Assembly (NCBI GenBank): GCA_964522195.1
Contig: CAZFSV010000003.1
Coordinates: 29,575-93,574 of the forward strand
Length of the DNA: 64,000 nt
Source: an uncultured Candidatus Saccharibacteria bacterium
GTDB lineage: Bacteria > Patescibacteriota > Minisyncoccia > Phycocordibacterales > UBA9973
Reading direction: 5' to 3'
Shown here: piece after piece, positions 2,380 through 60,652 of the stretch
How the letters are laid out: the number at the start of each line of letters is the position of its first letter
Position numbering within the stretch: position 1 is the stretch's first letter
Notes under the pieces: generated by a model
Databases searched by the model: none
Seen by the model: only the letters and a program-made list of their open reading frames with translations
Told to the model about the DNA's origin: nothing
Position numbers and translations under genes: made by a program

Positions 2380-3665
2380 AAAATTTTCAATTAGTTTTAG
2401 TTATAATTTTTATTTTTGGTGGAATTTTAGGAATTTTAGTTTTTGCTGGTTTTATAAATTTAGATGATACTGCTGTAAATAAACAATTTTCTGGAACTGT
2501 TAAGGTTTGGGGTAGTATTCCTGGTTCAGTTATGGCACCTTTAATTGAAGATCTTAATAAAAATAAAACTTATAATATTAATTACTATTTTATAAACCCT
2601 AATACTTTTAATGAAGAATTACTTGAAGCTATTGCTTTGGGTCAAGGTCCAGATTTATTTTTAGTTTCTAATGATTCTATTTATGAACATATTAATAAAA
2701 TTTCAGTAATACCTTATACTAATTATCCTTTAGTAAACTTTAAAAATAATTTCGTGCAAGCAAGTGATGTTTTTTTAGTTAATGAAGGTGCGCTCGCTCT
2801 ACCTTTAGTTGTTGACCCATTAGTTCTTTACTATAATAGAAGTATTTTAGACTCAAATGGTACAGTTTTTCCACCTTATTTTTGGGAAGATTTAGAGGAT
2901 TATTCAGAAAAATTTACTAAAAAAGATGAAGCAGGACAAATAGAAAGGAGTGCTTTTGCTTTAGGTGTTTTCGATAACATCAATCACTCAAAAGATATTT
3001 TGTCGGCTATGTTTCTACAAACAGGTAATCCTATAATTCAAAAAGCAAAATACCTGTTTGAAAGTGTTTTGATTGCTAATTTAGATAACCAGAATAACAC
3101 AGCTCAAGCACTAGATTTTTATACAAGCTTTTCTAATCCTTTGAAGGATAATTATTCTTGGAATAAATCTTTTCCGAATTCGCTCGATATGTTTAGTAAA
3201 GAAGATTTAGTTTTTTATTTTGGTTTAGCAAGTGATTTTAAAATTTTAATAAATAAAAATCCAAATCAAAATTTTCAAATAGCAGAATTACCTCAATATA
3301 AAAACACTCAAAAAGCAACCTATGCTAAAGTTTTAGGGGTAGCTATGTCTAATTTCAGTAAGAATCAAGGGGCTGCATTTGATGCTATGTATTCTATGTC
3401 TGAGTCTAGCTTTGTAGGTCAAATTAGTAAAATAGAGAATTTGCCACCTGCCCGTAGAGATTTATTAAATCAAGGTTCTGCGAATTCGTATTTACCAGTA
3501 TTTTATTCTTCGGCTTTGTTCGCTAAAAGTTGGCTAGATCCTTCTTTTAGAGATACAAATATTGTTTTTAGGGCTATGGTTGATCAGGTTTTATCTAATG
3601 AAAGAGATGCAATTGAATCAATTACTGCAGCAAATAATCGTATTAATATTTTATTTAGAAATTAA
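2376..3665 (+). CDS. membrane-anchored extracellular solute-binding-protein-like protein (SBP family 1-like)
   Basis: An N-terminal TM/signal anchor is followed by a periplasmic-binding-protein-like pattern (VKVWGS...PDLFLV...YYNRSIL...TWEDL). No ABC permease or ATPase lies adjacent. Confidence 0.35.
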   Translation: MKNFQLVLVIIFIFGGILGILVFAGFINLDDTAVNKQFSGTVKVWGSIPGSVMAPLIEDLNKNKTYNINYYFINPNTFNEELLEAIALGQGPDLFLVSNDSIYEHINKISVIPYTNYPLVNFKNNFVQASDVFLVNEGALALPLVVDPLVLYYNRSILDSNGTVFPPYFWEDLEDYSEKFTKKDEAGQIERSAFALGVFDNINHSKDILSAMFLQTGNPIIQKAKYLFESVLIANLDNQNNTAQALDFYTSFSNPLKDNYSWNKSFPNSLDMFSKEDLVFYFGLASDFKILINKNPNQNFQIAELPQYKNTQKATYAKVLGVAMSNFSKNQGAAFDAMYSMSESSFVGQISKIENLPPARRDLLNQGSANSYLPVFYSSALFAKSWLDPSFRDTNIVFRAMVDQVLSNERDAIESITAANNRINILFRN

Positions 3666-8986: not shown

Positions 8987-9068
8987 GCCTGAGTGGCGGA
9001 ATTGGTATACGCGCACGACTTAAAATCGTGTCTCGCAAGGGATGTGGGTTCGACCCCCACCTCAGGCA
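8987..9068 (+). tRNA. tRNA-Leu (anticodon TAA)
   Basis: Acceptor GCCTGAG/CTCAGGC, anticodon loop CTTAAAA, long variable arm, T-loop TTCGACC. Confidence 0.85.
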
Positions 9069-9167
9069 CAAAATATTAAATATTTTTAGGTATGCGCCCA
9101 TAGCTGTTTTGGTAGGTCGTTAGATAAATAGTAAAATAAAAGTTTAATTTAAAAATAAATATAATAT

Positions 9168-9240
9168 GCGCCCATAGCTCAGCTGGTAGAGCAGATCCCT
9201 CTTAAGGATAAGGTCCAAGGTTCGATCCCTTGTGGGCGCA
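9168..9240 (+). tRNA. tRNA-Lys (anticodon CTT)
   Basis: Acceptor GCGCCCA/TGGGCGC, D-arm TAGCTCAGCTGGTAGAGC, anticodon loop CTCTTAA, T-arm CAAGGTTCGATCCCTTG. Confidence 0.8.
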
Positions 9241-9345
9241 CAAAGCATGTTATGCTTTGTGCGAATAGCAGGCACGATTGATGCCGAGACGGGGTAGCGA
9301 GATTTTTCAGCAGAAAAATACTTGTGACTACAAAGTAATTATATA
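9241..9345 (+). repeat. tRNA-adjacent mini-element, copy 1 (after tRNA-Lys)
   Basis: A hairpin overlaps the tRNA 3' end (cgcacaaagcat-gtt-atgctttgtgcg). It is followed by atagcaggca...gccgagacggggtagcgagatttttcagcagaaaaatacttgtgac, which is about 80% identical to 9556..9605. Confidence 0.4.
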
Positions 9346-9363
9346 TGTTAGTATATAAATTTT

Positions 9364-9445
9364 GGGTAAGTGGCGGAATTGGTATACGCGCTGGTCTTAG
9401 GAACCAGTGCCGCAAGGCTTGAGGGTTCGAGTCCCTCCTTACCCA
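9364..9445 (+). tRNA. tRNA-Leu (anticodon TAG)
   Basis: Acceptor GGGTAAG/CTTACCC, anticodon stem CTGGT/ACCAG with loop CTTAGGA, long variable arm. Confidence 0.85.
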
Positions 9446-9449
9446 CAAA

Positions 9450-9627
9450 AATTCACAAAAGACAGCTAAATGCTGTCTTTTGTGTTATTTTTTTGTGTGG
9501 TAAAGGAGAGGCGAGAAAGACGGAGGCGGTATACAAGAGGAGCACAGCGAGTGCTTGTGGCCGAGTCGGGGTCGCGAAAATTTTCTTTAGAAAATTATTT
9601 GTGACCGAGTCCCTCCTTACCCACAAA
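9450..9627 (+). repeat. tRNA-adjacent mini-element, copy 2, ending in a 22-nt exact direct repeat of the tRNA-Leu(TAG) 3' end
   Basis: cgagtccctccttacccacaaa occurs at 9428..9449 (inside the tRNA) and again at 9606..9627. The internal motif gccgagtcggggtcgcgaaaattttctttagaaaattatttgtgac is shared with copies 1 and 3. Terminator hairpins lie on both sides. Confidence 0.55.
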
Positions 9628-9669
9628 TTTTAAAAAACAGTGATTTTTATCACTGTTTTTTAAATAATG

Positions 9670-9741
9670 AGGCCTGGGGCGGAATCGAACCGCCGTGTGG
9701 AGATTTTGCAGATCTCTGCCTTACCACTTGGCGACCAGGCC
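9670..9741 (-). tRNA. tRNA-Cys (anticodon GCA)
   Basis: Reverse complement GGCCTGGTCGCCAAGTGGTAAGGCAGAGATCTGCAAAATCTCCACACGGCGGTTCGATTCCGCCCCAGGCCT. Confidence 0.8.
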
Positions 9742-9753
9742 GTACTAATAATA

Positions 9754-10077
9754 TTACTTTTCTCTAAGTAATTCGTCAATTTTTTGCCTATTTTTTTCTC
9801 CTTTATCTATTTCTATGTCTATAAAAGGTATGACTTTTGTTTCCATATATTTTTTTAAATATTCACGAATTTCTCCTCTTTTTCTTTTTGCAAAATCTAA
9901 TGCAGGTTTTTCTTTGGATTCTGGTAGTACTGTTATTAAAATAGTACCTTTTTTTAAATCAGGAGAAACAGAAGCTGAAGTAACAGTAATCAAAGAAGTA
10001 TTATTATTTTCTTTCATTAAAAATTCTGCTACATGTTTTTTTATTAATTGGCTAACTTTTTCTTGTCTATCTGTCAT
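9754..10077 (-). CDS. rbfA: ribosome-binding factor A
   Basis: About 107 aa and directly downstream of infB on the same strand, with an RbfA-like sequence. Confidence 0.7.
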   Translation of the reverse strand: MTDRQEKVSQLIKKHVAEFLMKENNNTSLITVTSASVSPDLKKGTILITVLPESKEKPALDFAKRKRGEIREYLKKYMETKVIPFIDIEIDKGEKNRQKIDELLREK

Positions 10078-10081
10078 ATTT

Positions 10082-11587
10082 TTATTTTTGAATTACTGAA
10101 AATGATTCTATAATATCTCCAGCTACTATTTCTAATTTTGATTCTAGCATCATTCCGAATTCTGATCCTTCTTCTACTGTGCTTGTTTTATTTTTTGCTT
10201 TCTCTAGATTTACTAGTTTTCCACGACCAATTTCATTATCTCGACGCATTATGCGAACTGTACCTAAAGAAATATTTCCTTCTACTACTTTACCACCTAA
10301 AACTTGGCGTTCTTTAGTTCGACTAAAGGCTTTTAATATTTTTGCTTTACCTGTAACTTCTGTTGTTTCAACCCTAGGTCTTCTTTTTTCTATTTCTTCT
10401 GTTAGCCATTCAGTCATTTTGTAAATGATATCAAAAGTTTGAGTAGTTATATTTGTTCGGTCTGCAAAATTCCTAGCATTATTTTCTATTTTAACATTAA
10501 AACCTAAAACAATAGTTTCTTCCGTTGCAGTTTTTATATCGTTCTCTCCAATATTCCCTTCACCTTTTGAAATAATCTTGAAATAAGCTCCTTCATTTTC
10601 AATTTTTAAGATTTCTTTTTCTAAAGCTTCGAGTGTGCCTGAAGTGTCGGCTTTTATGATTATAGGAATTATTTTTTTATTAACATTATTTAAATCTCCA
10701 TTATCTATTTGCTTAGAATTAGGATTGTTTAAATTTTCAGTTTTAAATTTTAAAGCTTCATCTTTTTTATCAAAGCTAAAAAATTTCTCTCCAACCTTAG
10801 GCATTTTATCAAAACCAATTAAGCGAATAGGGGACGAGAAAGAAGCCTCGTTTATTGCTTTACCTTTAAAATCTTCTAAAATCCTAACAGGACAAGCGCT
10901 ATCACCTGAAACAACCCACATACCTTTTTCTAAACTACCATTTTTTATAACTAAACTTGCTTCTATTCCTCTTCTTTGGTCTAAGTTTGCTTCAATTATA
11001 AAACCTTCTGCTTTTTGATCTAGGTCTCCTGTGAAATTCTCCATTTCAGAAACTAAGTTTATTAGATTTAATAATTCTTCGATGTTTTTACCAGTTTTTG
11101 CAGAAATTTCTACAAAAGGAATATTGCCACCATAGTTTTCTAAGTAAATACCATTTTCTGCTAACTCTAATTTTACTCTTTCAGGATTTGCTTCTGGTTT
11201 ATCTATTTTGTTAATAGCTACAATTACAGGTATTTTACTCTCTTCAATTGTTTTCCAAGCTTCCAATGTTTGCATTTTTACACCATCTTCAGCTGAAACT
11301 ATTAATATTGCAATATCTGCAGTATTAGCACCTCTTTCGCGCATTTTAGAAAAAGCTGCATGACCTGGTGTGTCTAGAAAAGTTATTTTTTTATCTTTAT
11401 TGTTTTCATCTTTTGCTAAAACTTCATAGCCGGAAATATGTTGAGTTATTCCTCCAGCTTCAGTATCTACAACATTACTTTTCCTAATATAATCCAAAAG
11501 AGTAGATTTACCATGATCTACGTGTCCCATTATAACAACTACAGGTGGACGAATTACTATAGAATTTTCTTTTTTATTTTTTTGCAT
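10082..11587 (-). CDS. infB: translation initiation factor IF-2 (short form)
   Basis: G-domain motifs GHVDHGKS, DTPGH, NKID and the IF-2 C-terminal domains. Its 501 aa lack the long N-terminal extension. Confidence 0.85.
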   Translation of the reverse strand: MQKNKKENSIVIRPPVVVIMGHVDHGKSTLLDYIRKSNVVDTEAGGITQHISGYEVLAKDENNKDKKITFLDTPGHAAFSKMRERGANTADIAILIVSAEDGVKMQTLEAWKTIEESKIPVIVAINKIDKPEANPERVKLELAENGIYLENYGGNIPFVEISAKTGKNIEELLNLINLVSEMENFTGDLDQKAEGFIIEANLDQRRGIEASLVIKNGSLEKGMWVVSGDSACPVRILEDFKGKAINEASFSSPIRLIGFDKMPKVGEKFFSFDKKDEALKFKTENLNNPNSKQIDNGDLNNVNKKIIPIIIKADTSGTLEALEKEILKIENEGAYFKIISKGEGNIGENDIKTATEETIVLGFNVKIENNARNFADRTNITTQTFDIIYKMTEWLTEEIEKRRPRVETTEVTGKAKILKAFSRTKERQVLGGKVVEGNISLGTVRIMRRDNEIGRGKLVNLEKAKNKTSTVEEGSEFGMMLESKLEIVAGDIIESFSVIQK

Positions 11588-37859: not shown

Positions 37860-39569
37860 ATGGAACACACACCCGAAACCAAGAATTGTCAGAATTGTAA
37901 AAATGATTTCACTGTAGAGAGTGAAGATTTTTCTTTTTACGAAAAGATGCAAGTCCCGGCACCAACTTGGTGTTCATTGTGTCGCTTTACAAGACGCATT
38001 GCATTTATTAATGCTTGGACTATGTATTTTAGAAAATGTGATCTCTGTGGAGAGAAAACAATGTCCATGTACCACCCTGATTCTAAATTAAAACTTTATT
38101 GTCAGCCTTGTTGGTGGAGTGACAAATGGGACGGGACTGAATACGCTATGGATTATGATCCTAGTCGTAATTTTTTGGAACAAGTTTTTGAATTAAAACA
38201 AAATACTCCTTTTTGTGCCCTAGAAACTACATATTTAAATTTAAAAAATTCTGAGTATACAAACGCTATATCATTTGCTAAAAATTGCTATTTAGTTTTC
38301 TGGGCGGATTATTGCGAGAATGTTTTTTATTCCTCTCTTTTAAACACGGTTAAAGATAGTTTAGATTTATTGAGAGTATTTAAATCTGAATTATCCTATG
38401 AGTCTGTTGGTGTTGGTAAATCTAGTAAAGTATTTTTTTCTGATACTTGTGATGATTGTGTTGACGTTTGGTTTTCTAGAAATTGTTATGGATGTATGAA
38501 TGTGGTTGGTTGTGTAAATCTAAGAGGCAAAAGTTATATGATTTTTAATCAACAATATTCTAAAGAAGAATATTTTGAAAAATTAAAAGAATTTAAGCTT
38601 GATACCAGAGAAGGAATTAAAAAGCTTTGGCAAGAATCACAAGACTTTTGGCAAAAGCATCCATATAGAGAATATACAGGCAACCCTCAGAACCTAAATG
38701 TATCTGGTGATTATATTTTTGAATCAAAAAATGCTAAAGATTGTTATATTTCTATGGGTGTTGAAGATTCTAAATATGTTCAATTTGCAACTGTACTAAA
38801 AACTACAAATTGTATGGATTACTCTGGTTGGGGCAATAATGCGTCCATGATGTATGAGTGTGCTTCTATGGGAGAAGATGTTTCAAATTCAAAGTTCTCT
38901 TTTTACAGTTTCCCTGATGTTCTAGGTTTAGAATATTCTATGCATTGTATTTCTGGGAAAAATAATTTTGGGTGTGTGAATTTAAAAAGAAAAAAATACG
39001 CTATTTTAAATAAAGAATATTCCAAAGAAGAATACGAGATTTTGCGGGCAAAAATTATTGAAGATATGACTAATAATCCTTATATAGATAGCAAAGGTAG
39101 AATTTATAAATATGGTGAATTTTTCCCTGTGGAATTTTCTTCTTTCCCGTATAATGATTCAAATGCATCTCGCTTTACTCCTAAAACCAAAGAAGAGGCT
39201 ATTTCTGAAGGGTATAATTGGATAGATAAACCGATAAATAATTATACAGTTACGATAAAGGGGCTTGATCTACCTCAGACTATAGAAGAAGTAGATGAAG
39301 AGATATTAAAAGAAGTGGTAGGGTGTACTAATTGTAATAACGGGTTTAGATTTACTGGAGGGGAGTTGAATTTATACAAAAAGTTGAATTTACCGTTGTC
39401 GGAGAATTGCCCTAAATGCAGAGAAGAGAGAAGATTTAATTCTATCAATAAACCGTATAGTTTTGAATCCAATTGTATGAAATGCAACAAAGAGATTACT
39501 ACTATGCATAATCCAAAAGACAATAAAATAATTTACTGTGTGTCCTGCTATCAGCAAGAGATATTATAA
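37860..39569 (+). CDS. Cys-rich multi-zinc-ribbon repeat protein (intact 569-aa paralog)
   Basis: CxxC pairs at both ends sit inside the conserved F.FYEK..VP.P..C..CR and L.LYKKLNLP....C..CR modules. Internal repeats have the form ...C..C.DVWFS.NC.GC.NVVGCVNLRGKSYMIFNQQYSKEEYF. Confidence 0.55.
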   Translation: MEHTPETKNCQNCKNDFTVESEDFSFYEKMQVPAPTWCSLCRFTRRIAFINAWTMYFRKCDLCGEKTMSMYHPDSKLKLYCQPCWWSDKWDGTEYAMDYDPSRNFLEQVFELKQNTPFCALETTYLNLKNSEYTNAISFAKNCYLVFWADYCENVFYSSLLNTVKDSLDLLRVFKSELSYESVGVGKSSKVFFSDTCDDCVDVWFSRNCYGCMNVVGCVNLRGKSYMIFNQQYSKEEYFEKLKEFKLDTREGIKKLWQESQDFWQKHPYREYTGNPQNLNVSGDYIFESKNAKDCYISMGVEDSKYVQFATVLKTTNCMDYSGWGNNASMMYECASMGEDVSNSKFSFYSFPDVLGLEYSMHCISGKNNFGCVNLKRKKYAILNKEYSKEEYEILRAKIIEDMTNNPYIDSKGRIYKYGEFFPVEFSSFPYNDSNASRFTPKTKEEAISEGYNWIDKPINNYTVTIKGLDLPQTIEEVDEEILKEVVGCTNCNNGFRFTGGELNLYKKLNLPLSENCPKCREERRFNSINKPYSFESNCMKCNKEITTMHNPKDNKIIYCVSCYQQEIL

Positions 39570-39592
39570 TTTTGTGCTAAAATATATAAATA

Positions 39593-41047
39593 ATGGCGAA
39601 ACCAAATCGAGTTCAAATAATTAAATACGGTCCACCACCACCAGAGCTTCCAGTTTATGGCAAGGTAAAACCTGAAGAGGTTTCTTTTATTGGGCGGACT
39701 AATTACGTCGCTTCTCTCGAAGAGAAGAAATTTATTTTCGGTTTCAAGAGAGTCGACCGTCGTCGTCACTTGTATATTATAGGTAAGTCTGGAGTAGGTA
39801 AGACTAAACTTCTCGAACTTTTCTTGCGCCAAGATATCACTTATGGTCACGGACTTTGTCTTATCGATCCTCATGGAGACGTGATAGATTCTATGCTCGA
39901 TTATATTCCAAAAGAACGTATTGAAGACGTTTGTATTATCGATCCGTCTGACGTGAATTTCCCAGCCTCTTTCAATCCTCTAGCGAACGTCGACCCTATG
40001 TTTAAATTTCAATTGACTCAAGGTTTGATTGAAGTTTTTCAAAAGCAATTCGGTGCTAACTGGACTCCTCGTCTCGAGCACGTTTTTCGTTTTACATGTC
40101 TGGCACTACTGGACTATCCGTATGCGACCATGCGCGGAATGATATCTATGCTTACTGATAGAAATTATCGTCAGAAAGTAGTGGAATATATTCAAGACGA
40201 TATGGTCAAAAGATTCTTCGCTATTGAATTCGCGGACTGGTCTGAGAAATTCGATACTGATGCTATTATCCCGCTCGTGAATAAACTCGGTCAATTCTTG
40301 TCTGACCCTTTGCTCCGCAATATCTTCGGTCAGAAAGAAAATAAAATAGATATTAGTACTTTGATGAATGAGCAGAAAATTATTTTGATAAATCTTTCTA
40401 AAGGTAAAATCGGTGAAGAGAATTCTTCTTTCTTTGGATCTATGTTTTTGACCAAGATTAAACAAGCTGGTATGGAACGCGCGCATATCTTAGAGAAAGA
40501 TCGTAAAGATTTTTATATTTATGTCGACGAGTTCCAAAACGTCGTGACTCAAACTTTCGAAAATATTCTATCGGAGGCTCGTAAATATGGATTGAACTTA
40601 ACCATGGCTCACCAATACGTCGGGCAGATTCAACCGAAAATCTATCAATCCATTCTCGGTAACGTTGGATCAATTATTTCTTTCCGTGTGGGAGGAGAAG
40701 ACGCGACTCGTTTGAAACCAGAATTCGACCCGCTTTTCGGAGTCAAAGATATGATCAACCTTGCTGTGGGAGAATTTTATATCAAGATGACTATCGACGG
40801 GGAGAGTTATGACCCTTTCTCAGCAGAGACTCTACGAGTATTACCTCCGACTCATACCTCCTACAGAGAAGAAATCATGGCAGCTTCACGTCGCAAATAT
40901 GCTATCTCAAAAGGTGACGCTCAGAGATTGATCCAAGAAGAGGAGTCTACTATAATTCGTAGTGCTGAAGAAAAAGCTGCGATAAAAGGTGCCGGCAGAA
41001 CAGAAGAAGGAGATAGAAAAGAAACGGAATCTGAACCTATGATATAA
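39593..41047 (+). CDS. TraD/VirD4 (type IV coupling protein)-like AAA ATPase, no TM segments
   Basis: Walker A IIGKSGVGKT, LCLIDPHGD...CIIDPSD..FNPL, Walker B IYVDEFQNV and LTMAHQ. Confidence 0.5.
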   Translation: MAKPNRVQIIKYGPPPPELPVYGKVKPEEVSFIGRTNYVASLEEKKFIFGFKRVDRRRHLYIIGKSGVGKTKLLELFLRQDITYGHGLCLIDPHGDVIDSMLDYIPKERIEDVCIIDPSDVNFPASFNPLANVDPMFKFQLTQGLIEVFQKQFGANWTPRLEHVFRFTCLALLDYPYATMRGMISMLTDRNYRQKVVEYIQDDMVKRFFAIEFADWSEKFDTDAIIPLVNKLGQFLSDPLLRNIFGQKENKIDISTLMNEQKIILINLSKGKIGEENSSFFGSMFLTKIKQAGMERAHILEKDRKDFYIYVDEFQNVVTQTFENILSEARKYGLNLTMAHQYVGQIQPKIYQSILGNVGSIISFRVGGEDATRLKPEFDPLFGVKDMINLAVGEFYIKMTIDGESYDPFSAETLRVLPPTHTSYREEIMAASRRKYAISKGDAQRLIQEEESTIIRSAEEKAAIKGAGRTEEGDRKETESEPMI

Positions 41048-50496: not shown

Positions 50497-50940
50497 ATGA
50501 AAAATAATAAAAAAATATATTTTTTGGTTTTTGCTTTATTAATATTTGGTGGATTTTACTGGTTTTTAAATCCTGTGAATTGTTATGGTGATAAATGTGA
50601 AGTTCAAAATAACAATACAAAATCTTTTACTGAGTTCCCAGAAATGAATCCCGTAGAGCTTGAAGAAAAATTAAAAAATGAAGAAATTTATCTTTTAGAT
50701 ATTAGGGAAGAAGTAGAATGGAATGCTGGTCGTATAGCTAATGCAAATTTTTTACCTTTAGGGATGATAAATATTGAAAACACTAAAGACATACCAAAAG
50801 ATAAACCTGTTTATGTATATTGTCGTACTGGTAATAGAGCAAAAGAAGGTACAGAAAAATTACGCTCCCTTGGTTTTGATGCATATAATATTGGTGGGAT
50901 AGTCCAATATACTGAAAGAGGTGGAAAATTAGTTAAATAA
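50497..50940 (+). CDS. rhodanese-like sulfurtransferase, membrane/secreted
   Basis: N-terminal TM and the CRTGNRA active-site loop. Confidence 0.65.
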   Translation: MKNNKKIYFLVFALLIFGGFYWFLNPVNCYGDKCEVQNNNTKSFTEFPEMNPVELEEKLKNEEIYLLDIREEVEWNAGRIANANFLPLGMINIENTKDIPKDKPVYVYCRTGNRAKEGTEKLRSLGFDAYNIGGIVQYTERGGKLVK

Positions 50941-50992
50941 AAACTTAAAAAGTATTTACTTTCTTTTTTAGAAAATTTATAATTTATTTAAT

Positions 50993-53900
50993 ATGACTTC
51001 AAAATTTCACATGAAATTTTGGTTAGTGTTTATTGTCGTTTTTACGATATTGCTATTACCTCGTTTTATTTTTGCTAAGACTTTTATTAAAGATGATATT
51101 TCTGTTGATACAACTTGGACTAAAGCAAATAGTCCTTATATATTAGAGCGTTCTATTGTTGTTTTCGAAGAAGCTACTTTAAATATAGAACCCGGGGTAG
51201 AAATTAAATTTCCGTATTTTTCGCCTGGGAATAGTATTTATTTTTTTGGTAAATTGATAGCAATAGGTTCAGAAGAAGAACCTATTTATTTTACTTCAAA
51301 TTCTGATGATGCTTTAAGTAATACAGATGATGAAGAATATTGTGATGAAGAATATGATGAAGAAGGAAATTTAATTTCTAAAACAAATTGTGAATATTTT
51401 GATTTTAATGAACCTTTTGTGGGTGATTGGGGTGGTCTTTATTTTATAGATAGTGAAAATAATATTTTAGAAAATATTAATATAAATTACGCAAATGTAG
51501 GTTTGACTTTTCAAAACTCAGAAGCAAGCTTAAAACATTTTTTAATAATAAATAGCCAAGAAGGAATTTTAGCATTTAATAATAGTTCTATTGATATTTT
51601 AGATGCTCAATTACTTGATTTAGAACAAAATGCTTTAATTTTATATAATAATACTTTAATTAATTTTAGTAATTTAATCATTGAAAATGTTATAAATAAT
51701 CCTATTAATGTTTACAATGAATCCTCTCTTTCAGGTAATTATTTAGAATTTAATGGTTCTTCTTTGAGTGGATATACTGAAGCAATTATTTTATTTAATG
51801 GTTCAAATTTAGTTTTAAATAGTGCTAAATTTAACGATTGCCCTTTAAATAGTTGTATCACTTTCTTTGATAGTGAATATTTTTTAGGTGAAACCTCTTT
51901 ATTAGAAATAAATGATACCTTATTTGCTGAAGGTAGGGGTAGTGGGCTGCTTACTTTTTCAGGGAAACCAACAAATTTAAAAATAACTAATTCGGCTTTT
52001 TTAGATTTTGATTTGTTTGCAATAGAGTCTTATCGTGATATTTCAACTATAGATGCAAGGAATAATTATTTTGGAGACATGTCTGGGCCTTATCATAGTA
52101 CACAAAATTCAGAAGGAAAAGGTGAGGCTATTTATGGTAATAATATTTTATTTTATCCTTGGCTTTTTAATAATCCTTTTGAGTTATGTATAGAGGATTG
52201 TGCTTCAAATGTTTTATTTATTCCTGGGATGCAAGGTTCTCGTTTGTATGCAGATTTGGGAAGTGGAGAAAAAGAGCTTTGGCTCTCTAGGAAAGATTCT
52301 TATCATGAAGCTTTATTTTTAGACGAAGAAGGTAAAAGTATTAATGAAGTTTATACTAAAAATGACATTAGAAATAATGGAGATAAAAAAGAAACAGGTA
52401 TAATTGACGAAGCAATTTTAGGAATAAATATTTATAAATCTTTAGGAATTCAATTAAAAAATCTTAAAACTGATAAAATAATTAATGATTATTCTTTCAT
52501 TCCCTATGATTGGAGGCTTGCCTTAGATGATATTTTAAATAATGGTAAAGTTTTTGGTAATAAAAATCAGAATTTATCTTATCTTGAAAATTCTACTTTG
52601 GAAGAAAGTTTTATTTATAAAGAATTATCAAAATTAGCTAAAAGTTCTAAATCAGGCAAGGTTTCTATTGTATCTCATTCAAATGGAGGATTAGTTACTA
52701 AAGCTTTAATTCAAAAATTAAAAGATAACAATGATCCTTTGTATGAAAAAATTGATGAGATTTTTTTTGTAGCAGTGCCTCAAATAGGCGCTCCGGAAGC
52801 AGTGCTTGCTTTGCTTTTTGGGACAGGAGTTGGTCCTTTTGATTCCATTATGGATCAAGATGTTTCGAGAGGGTTAGGAGAAAATATGCCGACTCTTTAT
52901 AACCTTTTACCTAGGGAAAGTTATTTTAATTTAATTAATAATAAAGATTCTAAAAAAGCAATTATTAATTTTTCAACTAAAACAAAATTTGAAAATGAAA
53001 AACTTAAAAATACTATAGAAAAATATGGTAATAACATAGATTCTTTTTCTGAGCTTGAAGATTATTTAAAAGGTGGTGACTATAGAGAAAAACCAGCAAT
53101 TAATGATACTAAAAATGCAAATATCGCAAATATTTATTTATATAATAATGCAATTAATCTTTATGAAATGCTTGATAATTGGCAAGCAAATCCTACGACT
53201 AAAGTTTACCAAGTAGGAGGTTTGGGTATGGAAACTATCTTAGGGCTTGATTATAAAGAAGTTAAAAAACTTTTAGGTAAAAAAGAAATATCTCCTAAAG
53301 CAAGAAAAACTATTTATGGAGACGGAACTGTGCCTTTAGTGAGTGCTACTTTTATGAATGAAAGTCAAAATATAGAGCAATGGTATGTTGATTTAGATAA
53401 AGCAAATAAAGATAATGTGATTCCAAAAGATCATGCTTTTATTTTGGAAATACCTAATTTATTGGATTTTATAAAAAATAAATTAAAAGGTGAAAAAACT
53501 TTTTTAGATCCAGAAAATATAATTTTTAGAAATAGAACTACACTAGCATCACACCCAAAGAAGTTAATCTATACTTTGCATTCACCTTTGTATTTAGGAG
53601 TTTTTGATAAAGATGGTAATTTCTCAGGTAAAGACGAACAAGGTAATATTATAAATGAAATTTTAGGAGCAGAATATTCTATAATCGGTGAAGTTCAGAG
53701 TTTATCTATACCGATAGAATTAGCTCATACTTTAGTTTTGAATGGATTTGATGATGGTTATTTCTCTTTAGAATTAGATGAATTTTCAAATGATAATTAT
53801 TCTGGTAATCAAATATTTGATGGTATAAAAAATACAAAAAATACTAAAGCAAAATTAGTTTTTGAAAATGAGAATAGTTTAGATAATTTAAAATTATTAG

Positions 53901-54373
53901 TTGATTTAGAAGGGGATGGAGAATTTGAATTAGAATATTTACCTTACAAAGAAGAAGTGATAATTCCGATACCTGAAATTATAAATAATCCTGGAGTGGT
54001 TTTGATTAATGCAAACAATAATACTAGAAATATAGTACCAGCAGTTTTGGGAGAAAGTATTGAAATTAATGAACAAAATAAGAAGGTAATTACAAATAAT
54101 GAAGAAAATTTACACATTGAAAAAGATAATACTTTAATAATAAATAATCAAAATTTGAATTCAACTCAATATAAAAACCTTGATGTTGAAGGTGATTTTA
54201 ATAAAAAAAATGAGGCTAAAACTTTAGATAAAGATATCAAAGAAGAAATAATTATTGACGATAAAATTCCACAAGATCAAAAAAGACAAGAAGGTAATTA
54301 TAGATATTTAATTATTTTCTTAGTTTTAATAACATTATTAATTAGCTTTAAATATCTTTTTAAGATAAAATAA
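50993..54373 (+). CDS. giant surface-anchored protein: beta-helix-like N-region plus an LCAT/PGAP1-like alpha/beta-hydrolase (lipase/acyltransferase) domain
   Basis: Signal/TM at the N-terminus and N-rich parallel-repeat-like segments. It carries the nucleophile elbow IVSHSNGG and a YGDGTVPLVSA motif, which I recall as LCAT-family, plus a C-terminal TM anchor YRYLIIFLVLITLLISF. Confidence 0.5.
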   Translation: MTSKFHMKFWLVFIVVFTILLLPRFIFAKTFIKDDISVDTTWTKANSPYILERSIVVFEEATLNIEPGVEIKFPYFSPGNSIYFFGKLIAIGSEEEPIYFTSNSDDALSNTDDEEYCDEEYDEEGNLISKTNCEYFDFNEPFVGDWGGLYFIDSENNILENININYANVGLTFQNSEASLKHFLIINSQEGILAFNNSSIDILDAQLLDLEQNALILYNNTLINFSNLIIENVINNPINVYNESSLSGNYLEFNGSSLSGYTEAIILFNGSNLVLNSAKFNDCPLNSCITFFDSEYFLGETSLLEINDTLFAEGRGSGLLTFSGKPTNLKITNSAFLDFDLFAIESYRDISTIDARNNYFGDMSGPYHSTQNSEGKGEAIYGNNILFYPWLFNNPFELCIEDCASNVLFIPGMQGSRLYADLGSGEKELWLSRKDSYHEALFLDEEGKSINEVYTKNDIRNNGDKKETGIIDEAILGINIYKSLGIQLKNLKTDKIINDYSFIPYDWRLALDDILNNGKVFGNKNQNLSYLENSTLEESFIYKELSKLAKSSKSGKVSIVSHSNGGLVTKALIQKLKDNNDPLYEKIDEIFFVAVPQIGAPEAVLALLFGTGVGPFDSIMDQDVSRGLGENMPTLYNLLPRESYFNLINNKDSKKAIINFSTKTKFENEKLKNTIEKYGNNIDSFSELEDYLKGGDYREKPAINDTKNANIANIYLYNNAINLYEMLDNWQANPTTKVYQVGGLGMETILGLDYKEVKKLLGKKEISPKARKTIYGDGTVPLVSATFMNESQNIEQWYVDLDKANKDNVIPKDHAFILEIPNLLDFIKNKLKGEKTFLDPENIIFRNRTTLASHPKKLIYTLHSPLYLGVFDKDGNFSGKDEQGNIINEILGAEYSIIGEVQSLSIPIELAHTLVLNGFDDGYFSLELDEFSNDNYSGNQIFDGIKNTKNTKAKLVFENENSLDNLKLLVDLEGDGEFELEYLPYKEEVIIPIPEIINNPGVVLINANNNTRNIVPAVLGESIEINEQNKKVITNNEENLHIEKDNTLIINNQNLNSTQYKNLDVEGDFNKKNEAKTLDKDIKEEIIIDDKIPQDQKRQEGNYRYLIIFLVLITLLISFKYLFKIK

Positions 54374-54377
54374 TTAT

Positions 54378-54755
54378 ATGAATTGGTTAAAAAACAAAAA
54401 ACAACAAATTTACTTTTTTATTTTCAGTATTTTATTTTTTTTATTAATTAATTTTTTAGAGTTTGTAAATTTATATTCTATTTGGAGAAGTGTACACACA
54501 ACCTTTTTATTTGTATTTGGTGTTACTAGTATTTTTTCATTTATTTTTATTTTTACTAAAATTTCAAGATGGTTAATTTGGTTAAAAACTGTAACAATTT
54601 TTTCTATTTTAAGTTTTTTAATAATTATATTTTTACCGTCAAATGATGGAGATTTTTTTGTTTCTTCACAAATACTTTTGTCTTTTATTTTCGTAATTCT
54701 CTACTCCCTAATCTCGCTAGGTATTCTTATTTACGGGTTTTTTATAAAAAATTAA
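54378..54755 (+). CDS. hypothetical polytopic membrane protein
   Basis: Four TM helices in 125 aa. Confidence 0.3.
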   Translation: MNWLKNKKQQIYFFIFSILFFLLINFLEFVNLYSIWRSVHTTFLFVFGVTSIFSFIFIFTKISRWLIWLKTVTIFSILSFLIIIFLPSNDGDFFVSSQILLSFIFVILYSLISLGILIYGFFIKN

Positions 54756-54785: not shown

Positions 54786-55073
54786 ATGATTCTCAAGCGA
54801 GATTTTAGTTTTAAGACGAAAGTTTGGATTTATCCCGGGGATGGAGGATGGCATTTTGTGACTTTAGATCAAAAATATAGCAATACTATTAGACAAGCTT
54901 TTCCTAGAGGTTTCGTCAAAATAGAAGTGAAAATAGGGAAGAGTATTTGGCGAACTTCTCTTTTTCCTCACAAACTATCAAAAGGTTATATACTTTGTAT
55001 TAATAAATCTATTCGTAAAAAAGAAAACATCTTTGCAGGGGATATAATAAATTTAAAGATTAAAATTCTTTAA
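54786..55073 (+). CDS. DUF1905-like small protein
   Basis: VWIYPGDGGWHFVTLDQ... Confidence 0.35.
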   Translation: MILKRDFSFKTKVWIYPGDGGWHFVTLDQKYSNTIRQAFPRGFVKIEVKIGKSIWRTSLFPHKLSKGYILCINKSIRKKENIFAGDIINLKIKIL

Positions 55074-58949: not shown

Positions 58950-59327
58950 ATGTTAAACGATTTTAAGCAATTTTTATTAAGAGGTAATGTTGTGGATCTT
59001 GCTGTGGGTGTTGTTATTGGTACTGCTTTTGGTAGTGTAGTTTCTTCACTCGTGGCTGATTTATTAACTCCTTTAATTTCAGCAATTGCAAAGTTGCCTG
59101 ATTTTAGTGGACTTAATTTTACTTTAAATGGTAGTACTTTTAAATATGGTAATTTTATAAATGTTTTAATTTCTTTTATTATGGTTGCAGGTGCTATATT
59201 CTTTTTTGTAGTAAAACCAATGAATATTTTAGTGAATAAAATGAAAAAAGAAAAACCAGCAGATGCTCCCAAAGGTCCTTCTGAAGTAGAGTTGTTGCAA
59301 GAAATTAGAGATTTGTTAAAAAAATAA
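58950..59327 (+). CDS. mscL: large-conductance mechanosensitive channel
   Basis: FKQFLLRGNVVDLAVGVVIGTAFG. Confidence 0.85.
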   Translation: MLNDFKQFLLRGNVVDLAVGVVIGTAFGSVVSSLVADLLTPLISAIAKLPDFSGLNFTLNGSTFKYGNFINVLISFIMVAGAIFFFVVKPMNILVNKMKKEKPADAPKGPSEVELLQEIRDLLKK

Positions 59328-59399
59328 TATTTTTAAAATAAAAGACCTCAAAGAAAATGAGGTTTTTTATTTTTAGTATTTATAGTAAACTTATAAAAT

Positions 59400-60059
59400 A
59401 TGAAGAATTATAAATATTTAACTTATATTACTGTTTTTTTTGTTTCGGTTTTAATGATATCTAATATTGTTTCTGTTAAAATTATTGATTTTGGACTTTT
59501 TACTTTTGATGCAGGGACTTTGCTTTTCCCATTATCTTATATTTTTGGAGATATTTTAACTGAAGTGTATGGTTATAAAAAAACTAAAGAAGTTATTTGG
59601 TTAGGTTTCTTTATGGCTTTCTTTATGTCTTTAGTCTTTATTTTAGTAGCTTATTTGCCACCAGCTTCTGATTGGACTTTGAATGAAGATTATAAAAATA
59701 TTTTAGGCGCTGCTCCTAGGATTGTTTTTGCTTCTTTGATAGCTTATTTATTAGGGTCTTTTTCAAATTCTATAATTTTAGCTAAGATGAAAATTTGGAC
59801 TAATGGTCGTAAGCTTTGGGCAAGAACGATAGGATCAACTTTAGTAGGAGAATTAATAGATAGCACTTTATTTATTTTAATAGCATTTTTGGGTGTTTTA
59901 CCATCATCTCTTCTTTTGACTTTAATAATTTCAAATTATATTTTTAAAAGTTTAGTTGAGATATTATTTACTCCTTTGACTTATAAAGTAGTCAATTTTT
60001 TGAAAAAAGCTGAAGGAGAAGATTATTTTGATAAAGAAACTAAATTTAATATTTTATAA
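59400..60059 (+). CDS. queuosine-precursor transporter-like membrane protein (YhhQ/COG1738 family)
   Basis: LFPLSYIFGDILTEVYGY. Confidence 0.6.
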   Translation: MKNYKYLTYITVFFVSVLMISNIVSVKIIDFGLFTFDAGTLLFPLSYIFGDILTEVYGYKKTKEVIWLGFFMAFFMSLVFILVAYLPPASDWTLNEDYKNILGAAPRIVFASLIAYLLGSFSNSIILAKMKIWTNGRKLWARTIGSTLVGELIDSTLFILIAFLGVLPSSLLLTLIISNYIFKSLVEILFTPLTYKVVNFLKKAEGEDYFDKETKFNIL

Positions 60060-60061
60060 AA

Positions 60062-60652
60062 ATGTTAGAATTTTTTGATATTCCTTATATTATTACAACT
60101 TATGGCTATGCCGGTATTTTTATAATTGTATTTTTAGAATCAGGAATATTTTTTGCATTACCAGGAGATTCTTTGCTTTTTGTTGCAGGGCTTTTGACTA
60201 TTTCTGGAATTTTAAATATTTATCTTTTAATACCTCTAATTTTTATTTCTACTTTTTTTGGAGGAGTTGCTGGCTTTCATATTGGAAAACATTTGCACGG
60301 TTTAAGAAAATTTTATATTTTTAGAAAAATTTTAAAAGAAAAATATATTAATCAAACTCATGATTTTTTTGATAAATATGGAAAAATTGCTATTTTAATT
60401 TCTCGCTTTGTTCCTATTGTTAGGACTTTTGTCCCTATTATTGCTGGTATTGCAAAAATGGATTATTTAAAATTTTTAAAATATAATTTAATTTCTTCAA
60501 TGCTTTGGGCAACCATTGTGCCATTGGTTGGATATTCTTTAGGTTTAATTTTTCCAGAAATTAAAAATTATTTATCTTATTTAATTATCTTGGTTGTTTT
60601 GATTTCTATATTGCCAGCTATAATAGAATTTTTTAGACAAAAAAAGTCTTAA
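60062..60652 (+). CDS. DedA-family membrane protein
   Basis: FFALPGDSLLFVAGLL. Confidence 0.65.
   Translation: MLEFFDIPYIITTYGYAGIFIIVFLESGIFFALPGDSLLFVAGLLTISGILNIYLLIPLIFISTFFGGVAGFHIGKHLHGLRKFYIFRKILKEKYINQTHDFFDKYGKIAILISRFVPIVRTFVPIIAGIAKMDYLKFLKYNLISSMLWATIVPLVGYSLGLIFPEIKNYLSYLIILVVLISILPAIIEFFRQKKS

Follow-up and report, generated by a model that had tools for sequence, protein, structure and literature searches.

The 64,000-nucleotide stretch of contig CAZFSV010000003.1 analyzed here, which we call the window, contains at positions 50993 to 54373 an ATG-started open reading frame (ORF) that is the longest of all ORFs in the window. It encodes a predicted multi-domain surface protein of 1126 residues, in which an α/β-hydrolase domain related to lysosomal phospholipase A2 (LPLA2, PLA2G15) and lecithin:cholesterol acyltransferase (LCAT) is set between a right-handed parallel β-helix and a β-sandwich, the latter being followed by a disordered stalk and a C-terminal transmembrane anchor. 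Four nucleotides past its stop codon lies a second gene (54378 to 54755) for a 125-residue protein with four predicted transmembrane helices, here called the partner. All features of the two genes are on the + strand. A protein identical to the 1126-residue protein, P0001, is present in public data (NCBI, Logan SRR13355620), and a database search returned, in addition to this copy, about 30 full-length relatives with 23-69% identity.

The full-length AlphaFold2 model, built on a 30-sequence alignment, has a mean pLDDT (predicted local distance difference test) of 79.4. It consists of an N-terminal helix (residues 5-21), an all-β solenoid (residues 29-395; pLDDT mostly >90), an α/β domain (residues 399-835; pLDDT mostly 80-96, low at 460-476 and 664-667), a β-sandwich (residues 855-985), an unstructured stretch (residues 989-1103; pLDDT ~25), and a C-terminal helix (residues 1104-1125). 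The low-confidence segments 460-476 and 664-667 fall where subdomains of the LCAT fold are expected. An earlier note on this DNA had given the same ORF, with identical coordinates, ATG start, and length, and had quoted two motifs that are both present, xSHSNGG, within IVSHSNGGL at residues 559-567, and YGDGTVPLVSA at residues 775-785. The N-terminal signal and C-terminal transmembrane anchor that it proposed are found by the hydropathy scan as well as in the model, and its N-rich, β-helix-like repeat segment corresponds to the all-β solenoid, which matches right-handed β-helix proteins.

The LCAT/LPLA2-like domain, with its cap and insertion regions included, is encoded by positions 52187 to 53497. 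The Pfam LCAT model PF02450, whose family takes in LCAT, LPLA2, and PDAT, matches it with 56.5 bits (gathering score 21, E = 3.6e-15), protein residues 503-790 aligning with profile positions 90-361 of 392. In the relative P0030 the same model scores 99.8 bits, and profile positions 4-222 are covered as well. This Pfam match, together with the family profile and the Foldseek comparisons, in which LPLA2 and LCAT are the top matches, bears out the LCAT-family assignment of the earlier note. The catalytic domain is a bona fide LCAT-family member, by itself an ordinary finding. The PGAP1 label that the note had added does not hold, as PF07819 reaches only 14.2 bits against a cutoff of 24.3 and aligns only with residues 549-599 around the nucleophile elbow. 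DUF676, DUF7379, and DUF900 were rejected as the family along with PGAP1, since their Pfam matches likewise span only ~50 residues at the elbow and score below or near the cutoffs. NCBIfam models gave no match to the 1126-residue protein. The location also has to be corrected: the hydrolase had been placed at nucleotides 2640-3400 of the ORF, an interval that corresponds to the β-sandwich, stalk, and transmembrane part, whereas the domain occupies ORF nucleotides ~1195-2505. The α/β-hydrolase fold on which the earlier note had made its assignment depend is itself predicted by AlphaFold2 and Foldseek.

Relatives of the protein in the PDB were reached only by family profile and by fold. The profile was derived from a 42-sequence alignment of the catalytic domain that includes outliers from Lachnospiraceae and Gaiellaceae at 19-27% identity. 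Searched against the PDB, it matched LPLA2 (4x90, E 1.3e-13), the effector Tle4 (4r1d, E 2.7e-13), and LCAT (E 1.6e-8), and its further matches were small bacterial lipases, mostly around the nucleophile elbow. In the Foldseek comparison of the model with the PDB, LPLA2 ranked first (E 5.6e-10 to 4.7e-9, target-normalized TM-score 0.65-0.69), followed by LCAT (target-normalized TM-score 0.57-0.62); the LPLA2 and LCAT targets comprise 369-378 residues and match at probability 1.00. Tle4 came next (E 5.9e-6, 0.42), ahead of BlEst2, a Bacillus lipase (E 1.9e-4, 0.34). Against viral models, giant-virus LCAT-family phospholipases were the best matches, with phage tailspikes and pectate-lyase-like proteins next.

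The residues that are invariant in the 30-sequence alignment are P411, W430, Y505-D506-W507-R508, H562-S563, G565-G566, G776-D777, V780, and H814, and the same residues are invariant in the 42-sequence alignment, in which identity falls to 19%. Pro411-Gly412 of 'VLFIPGMQGSRLY' (52223 to 52228) constitutes the oxyanion-hole strand motif and aligns to 'VIFIPGIMGTNL' of Tle4. In LPLA2, the corresponding strand would be LVPGDLGNQL. The residue that follows Pro411-Gly412, Met413, is at the position of LPLA2 Asp13 and LCAT Cys31 (PMC6027918). The YDWR motif, residues 505-508 (52505 to 52516), aligns to PYDWRR of LPLA2. The predicted nucleophile is Ser563 in S-H-S-N-G-G (52679 to 52681), the predicted triad acid is Asp777 in G-D-G-T-V (53321 to 53323), and the predicted triad base is His814 (53432 to 53434). 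All three are invariant and fall on residues 166, 328, and 360 of 4x90_A, a constant +1 offset from the published Ser165/Asp327/His359 triad of mature LPLA2 (PMC6027918). Ser563, Asp777, and His814 appear to form an intact catalytic triad in the LCAT motif order, and the enzyme is apparently active.

Comparison with LPLA2 and LCAT reveals the same overall arrangement, PG...YDWR...(A/S)HSxG...GDGTV...H, with aligned triad residues, and these two enzymes provide the best structural matches across the whole ~375-residue enzyme (target-normalized TM-scores of 0.57-0.69). However, there are differences. Identity to them is just 13-15%. The spacing between the Ser and the Asp is 214 residues, compared with 162 in LPLA2, which implies a larger cap or insertion region. 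Cysteines are absent from the interior of the catalytic domain, which has only C399 and C403 at its N-terminal edge. Moreover, this enzyme is bacterial, is placed between a β-helix and the sandwich, stalk, and transmembrane anchor, and has a dedicated four-helix partner gene. In the LCAT family, the target of the catalytic serine is an acyl ester in a glycerophospholipid of the membrane, and the acyl-enzyme that results is resolved by water (phospholipase A activity) or by a lipid alcohol (transacylation) (PMC6027918). From the likeness to LCAT and LPLA2, the same chemistry would be expected here, with an acyl-serine intermediate that is resolved in one of these two ways.

Two further enzymes bear comparison. 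Tle4, also called TplE, is a type VI secretion system (T6SS) effector of Pseudomonas aeruginosa whose structure (4R1D) aligns with the PG strand and the HSxGG elbow. It is aimed at another cell's membrane and is encoded beside its cognate protective protein, Tli4 (PMC4832377). In contrast to Tle4, the 1126-residue protein has no T6SS context and is predicted to be membrane tethered rather than injected, and Tli4, unlike the four-helix partner, is not known to be a small polytopic membrane protein; with a TM-score of 0.42, the relation looks like a shared superfamily rather than clear membership. BlEst2 of Bacillus licheniformis and EstA3 of Thermoanaerobacter resemble the protein in that an α/β-hydrolase is followed by a β-sandwich, which in these lipases modulates activity or long-chain substrate use (PMC10816834). 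However, the global match to BlEst2 is weak (0.34), and the sandwich alone does not find 6wpx among its top 50 matches, which leaves homology of the sandwiches unsupported.

The β-helix (residues 29-395, 51077 to 52177) contains ~30 regularly spaced strands in the model and is capped by a conserved NNxWGD..GPYH...PWL motif. Its Foldseek matches, with E-values of 3e-4 to 4e-2, are PL6 alginate lyases, the AlgG epimerase, K1 capsule lyase, and RbmB, with the tailspikes of HK620, P22, Sf6, and CBA120 also among them. The Pfam model Beta_helix, PF13229, is passed by the relatives P0004 (28.9 bits) and P0030 (59.9 bits; cutoff 25.9). Thus, the protein shares with phage tailspikes, capsule depolymerases, and PL6 lyases a right-handed β-helix as N-terminal domain. 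Unlike in those proteins, the β-helix is fused to a lipase and not carried on a virion, neither catalytic residues nor membership in a lyase family could be recognized in it, and the E-values are modest. In the predicted layout, the β-helix sits at the outer end of a surface protein, which hints at a role in glycan recognition. The cap that ends the β-helix (NNYFGD..GPYH...G.G....GNN..F.PWL; window positions 52060-52177, residues ~356-395) is common to many otherwise unrelated β-helix surface proteins, for example from Chloroflexus and other phyla, at 35-55% identity (P0032-P0065). These proteins carry the precomputed Pfam annotation PF28492, which was unmatched in the Pfam copy searched here.

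Hydropathy analysis showed only two strong hydrophobic segments, both terminal (residues ~3-33 and ~1101-1126), and a weak third segment at ~590 that lies inside the hydrolase core. The first is accounted for by a signal peptide (residues 1-28, 50993 to 51076) with a basic n-region and a hydrophobic core (residues ~8-27), and with probable cleavage after ...IFA in ...FIFA|KT; residues 5-21 of this region are the N-terminal helix of the model. The second is the transmembrane anchor (residues 1104-1125, 54302 to 54367), beyond which K1126 is the sole residue. Because the hydropathy scan and the AlphaFold2 model agree on these ends, we infer that the whole enzyme is located outside the cell, with the C-terminal helix in the membrane and a single-residue cytoplasmic tail. 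The stalk that precedes the anchor (residues 989-1103, 53957 to 54301) is 115 residues long, rich in N, I, E, and K, and devoid of secondary structure. The conserved β-sandwich (residues 855-985, 53555 to 53947) bears the motif HSPLxLxxxDxxGNxTG and, when modeled alone, has a pLDDT of 88 and a predicted TM-score (pTM) of 0.80. A Foldseek search of the PDB with this domain gave no match at E<=1e-3, the best having E 6e-3 and a TM-score of ~0.3. It was considered as a PLAT/LH2-like or BlEst2-like lipid-binding domain, and both assignments were dropped because neither type occurs among the top 50 matches and none reaches E<=1e-3. In bacterial lipases that have a C-terminal sandwich, this domain affects the use of long-chain substrates or is an inhibitory propeptide (PMC10816834), which serves here as functional precedent only.

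The 125-residue partner gave no Pfam and no PADLOC match. Its homologues occupy the same position even in relatives whose large protein is only 34% identical. A single-sequence search with the small protein retrieved only three proteins, and a profile was required. When the ~4300 ORFs from all fetched loci were searched with the iterated profile, 31 partner ORFs were identified, each of them either located directly 3' of the large gene, in many cases with an overlap of the stop codon, or a tandem extra copy. A partner is present in 24 of the 53 loci with enough downstream sequence, and two more loci also have it but with ORF-calling problems. The profile also detects 45 unannotated proteins of 122-155 residues, from Patescibacteria where named. 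In the reverse look-up, all five contigs have a gene with an LCAT domain immediately 5' of the small gene and in the same orientation. Sequence conservation within the partner family is weak, being limited to an invariant Trp (W68) after the second transmembrane helix, an LY..ISL motif in the fourth, and a basic tail; two cysteines found in the first outer loop of many homologues are not in the window copy. Conservation this weak points to a protein with a structural, docking, or protective function and not to a catalyst. Small ORFs with several transmembrane helices also lie 3' of the large gene in 11 further loci, including L065 and L078, which are not from the candidate phyla radiation (CPR); these have no recognizable homology to the partner and were not counted. 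In L012 (10386-11552) and L018 (8331-9177), the partner is duplicated in tandem 3' of the LCAT-like gene, a pattern often seen for immunity genes. In L009 (9290-13141), two partner copies flank genes for an EcoRI-like adenine methyltransferase and a GmrSD/HNH endonuclease, and it looks as if a restriction-modification cassette had been inserted and the partner gene duplicated.

When the catalytic domain was compared by phmmer with 1.84 billion cluster representatives, 2396 of these matched at E<=1e-3 and 1150 at E<=1e-30. The top 150 are nearly all 800-1600 residues long, with the LCAT-like domain mid-protein. Among the 135 complete representatives used for counting architectures, the C-terminal β-sandwich is present in 133, an N-terminal hydrophobic segment in 97, an N-terminal β-helix of the same type in 47, and a C-terminal transmembrane anchor in 16 (~12%). 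The conserved core of the family is the catalytic domain plus the β-sandwich, and members differ in their N-terminal module and in how they are anchored. The best 57 species-representative loci carry Patescibacteria or generic "bacterium" labels (Nomura-, Zambryski-, Kaiser-, Yanofsky-, Moran-, Falkow-, and Daviesbacteria, Paceibacterota, and "Saccharibacteria"), with one exception, a CPR-type LCAT-like gene on a 2.9-kb contig binned as Thermosynechococcus sp. WC_1 (L033, JAGVDA010000243.1). The latter is probably a mis-binned contig and not a cyanobacterial homologue. Shorter, weaker, stand-alone LCAT-like genes occur in species-representative genomes of Planctomycetota, Acidobacteriota, and Proteobacteria. 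The nearest relatives of the 1126-residue protein, at 45-53% identity, are labeled Nomurabacteria or Zambryskibacteria, and the gene order of the window (MetK, PIF1 helicase) recurs in loci with these labels; the producer is probably an ultra-small Patescibacteria (CPR) bacterium. In two loci, L088 (722-4998) and L089 (2807-5004), the LCAT-like gene is broken into two to four consecutive ORFs 5' of an intact partner, which could reflect a frameshift, an assembly error, or pseudogenization. A search of the literature on Patescibacteria or CPR bacteria in combination with LCAT, lipase, or lysophospholipid acyltransferase found no relevant paper. A Patescibacteria-centered multi-domain family that joins a catalytic and sandwich core to swappable N-terminal modules, and that is linked to a four-helix partner, thus appears to be undescribed in the literature searched.

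Collectively, the intact triad, the extracellular, stalk-mounted position, the tailspike-like tip, and the occurrence of the family mainly in bacteria that make no lipids of their own and have lysolipid-rich membranes lead us to favor, with moderate confidence, the notion that the protein is a surface-tethered phospholipase A or transacylase that would act on membrane lipids of a host or neighboring cell. Family membership, the invariant triad, the fold, the order of the domains, and the linkage of the two genes are observed here; topology, substrate, reaction direction, glycan binding, and biological role are the conjectural part. According to this model, the protein would be exported by the Sec pathway, probably with cleavage of the signal peptide, and anchored as a type I protein in the cytoplasmic membrane through the C-terminal helix, so that the ~115-residue disordered stalk could project the sandwich, the hydrolase, and, at the tip, the β-helix outward. 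Polysaccharide lyases and phage tailspikes use β-helices of this type for binding or cutting surface glycans. The β-helix may then dock onto envelope glycans of the host or neighboring cell, and the catalytic domain would take acyl groups from the esters of membrane glycerolipids, with acyl-Ser563 as the intermediate. Reaction of this intermediate with water would yield a free fatty acid and a lysolipid, as in a phospholipase A, and reaction with a lipid alcohol would result in transacylation. Either route could supply lipid to a cell unable to make it, damage the host membrane, or both. The presumably co-transcribed four-helix protein would be a dedicated partner, serving as a membrane dock, as an immunity-like means of self-protection, or as a component of lipid uptake.

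The distribution of the family makes the host-membrane and lipid-scavenging idea more plausible, since it is concentrated in Patescibacteria. CPR bacteria have no lipid synthesis and possess lysolipid-rich membranes, for which a phospholipase A origin has been suggested (PMC7242380). The source of the lipids in these membranes is an open question (PMC7242380), and the present family is a concrete, expressible candidate for the harvesting of host lipids or for attack on host membranes. A secreted phospholipase has also been proposed as the means by which Vampirococcus lugosii, a CPR predator, acquires host lipids (PMC8080830). The likeness is one of proposed role, as in both cases a CPR bacterium auxotrophic for lipids would export a phospholipase. 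A bolder version of the model, which we put forward as a doubtful conjecture, regards the LCAT-like enzyme and its four-helix partner as a lipid-harvesting device of many CPR bacteria. The variable N-terminal module would bind the host envelope, and acyl chains of host phospholipids would pass via Ser563, as in LCAT, to lysolipid acceptors of the symbiont, or lysolipids and fatty acids would be released for uptake. The task of the partner would be to present or flip acceptor lipids or to protect the membrane of the symbiont itself. If true, such a device would explain both the membrane supply and the lysolipid richness of CPR bacteria. In addition, the gene pair provides a marker whose occurrence in CPR genomes can be compared with their lifestyles.

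Several observations weigh against the favored model. A single-sequence phmmer search of the PDB found no solved relative, returning only chance-level matches to penicillin acylase. Pfam Beta_helix PF13229 has no match above threshold in the 1126-residue protein or in its fragment of residues 30-399, and glycan binding by the β-helix is a fold-based guess, given PDB matches as modest as E 3e-4 to 4e-2. The neighborhoods examined contain no lipid-metabolism or transporter genes beyond housekeeping synteny. Most members of the family have neither the β-helix nor the anchor, so a tethered reach applies to only a subset of them. Finally, the lipid auxotrophy invoked would be that of CPR bacteria in general, as 64 kb is too short to judge it for this organism.

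The evidence was also weighed with regard to four other functions. That the enzyme is a contact-dependent antibacterial or predatory phospholipase toxin, its main purpose being lysis of a host or competitor and not lipid supply, and that the four-helix protein is its immunity factor, as in T6SS Tle/Tli pairs or with the small transmembrane immunity proteins of pore-forming colicins, seems rather unlikely to us. Tle4 is the second-best PDB profile match (E 2.7e-13; Foldseek E 5.9e-6), and the partner, being tightly linked, fast evolving with only W68 invariant, and sometimes duplicated in tandem (L009, L012, L018), follows a typical immunity-gene pattern. However, no T6SS (VgrG/Hcp/PAAR) or other toxin-delivery genes were found in the neighborhoods examined, the small protein has no similarity to known immunity families or PADLOC models, approximately half of the loci have no recognizable partner, and the enzyme is tethered to the producer's own membrane. 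The toxin hypothesis also overlaps the tethered phospholipase model rather than excluding it. We consider it unlikely, too, that the protein is a general extracellular lipase or esterase that releases nutrients from non-membrane substrates, such as triacylglycerols, polyesters, or acyl and acetyl esters on β-helix-bound polysaccharides or cell-wall polymers. The profile does match Bacillus LipA, Burkholderia and Pseudomonas lipases, and the PHB depolymerase PhaZ7, BlEst2/EstA3-type lipases likewise carry a C-terminal β-sandwich, the β-helix fold is typical of carbohydrate-active enzymes, and Met413 is hydrophobic where typical lipases have M, V, or L. Yet these profile matches are mostly confined to the elbow, whereas over the whole domain, with YDWR, GDGTV, and the cap included, it is LPLA2 and LCAT, both phospholipid specific, that match best and not small lipases. 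The concentration of the family in lipid-auxotrophic CPR bacteria also favors membrane lipids. Even as an ordinary secreted lipase, the family would still provide a useful annotation for >1000 clusters of "hypothetical" proteins.

The tether to the producer's own membrane is what would be expected if the enzyme instead remodeled its own envelope, acting on outer-leaflet lipids or lipoproteins, for example to generate lysolipids that ease curvature stress in ultra-small cells, with the four-helix protein as regulator. Lysolipid-enriched CPR membranes (PMC7242380) and the remodeling by transacylation that is carried out by LCAT-family enzymes (PMC6027918) are in line with this possibility. However, the ~115-residue stalk and the distal, tailspike-like β-helix point away from the own membrane, and most relatives lack the C-terminal anchor, which makes self-directed remodeling improbable. 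Last, the hydrolase fold could serve only as the scaffold of a noncatalytic surface protein, either an adhesin or one of the S-layer type, since the protein is large and β-helix-rich, as many adhesins are, and its short cap motif is shared with the unrelated surface proteins P0032-P0065. We regard this as very unlikely because the triad, the oxyanion PG, and YDWR are invariant down to 19% identity, which would be unexpected for a dead enzyme.

With regard to the surroundings of the ORF, the local G+C content is 26-27%, compared with 24-37%, mostly 26-31%, in the rest of the window, and nothing in the base composition suggests a foreign insertion at the locus. A promoter-like site, TTTACT-17-TATAAT (50955 to 50983), is located 9 nt 5' of the ATG. 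It is a consensus match only and weak evidence, as such sites are just as frequent in the region as expected from shuffled sequence, which makes the promoter and terminator scan uninformative. Upstream, positions 50497-50940 encode a 147-residue rhodanese-domain protein with an N-terminal hydrophobic segment. A DUF1905 protein is encoded 3' of the partner, at 54786-55073; it is retained in the close relative L002 and absent from more distant loci. The neighbors that recur among the loci, ribosomal L10/L12, PIF1 helicase, MetK, Obg/GatB, a mechanosensitive channel, and a peptidoglycan-binding protein, were rejected as parts of a system and attributed to housekeeping synteny. Between 4.6 and 6.3 kb downstream, at ~58950-60650 of the window (L001 15958-17660), lie genes for MscL, a Vut_1 protein of the queuosine-precursor transporter family, and a DedA/VTT-domain membrane protein. 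DedA/VTT proteins have been linked to lipid flipping. The adjacency of these three genes to the LCAT-like gene is not kept in other loci.

Mobile and surface-protein genes were seen near the LCAT-like gene in some relatives. In three of the five loci found via the small protein, a Y1 (IS200/IS605-type) transposase gene is located immediately 5' of the LCAT-like gene (L086 1742-2413, L087 625-1290, L088 1-612). On L087, a Patescibacteria-like contig, the start of a called 7214-residue gene with Peptidase_S74 and Bact_surface_Ig-like domains (9153-10438) lies ~4 kb 3' of the cassette. Elsewhere in the window, positions 39593-41047 encode a TrwB/VirD4-like type IV secretion coupling protein (PF10412/PF02534, weak matches above threshold) in the stretch of highest G+C content (37% versus ~29%), and this gene is preceded by a 569-residue ORF without a Pfam match (37860-39569). 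The region from 37860 to 41047 may be what is left of an element of the conjugative or competence type. Finally, four tRNA genes, Leu-TAA, Lys-CTT, Leu-TAG, and, on the opposite strand, Cys-GCA, are clustered within 760 nt at 8987-9741.

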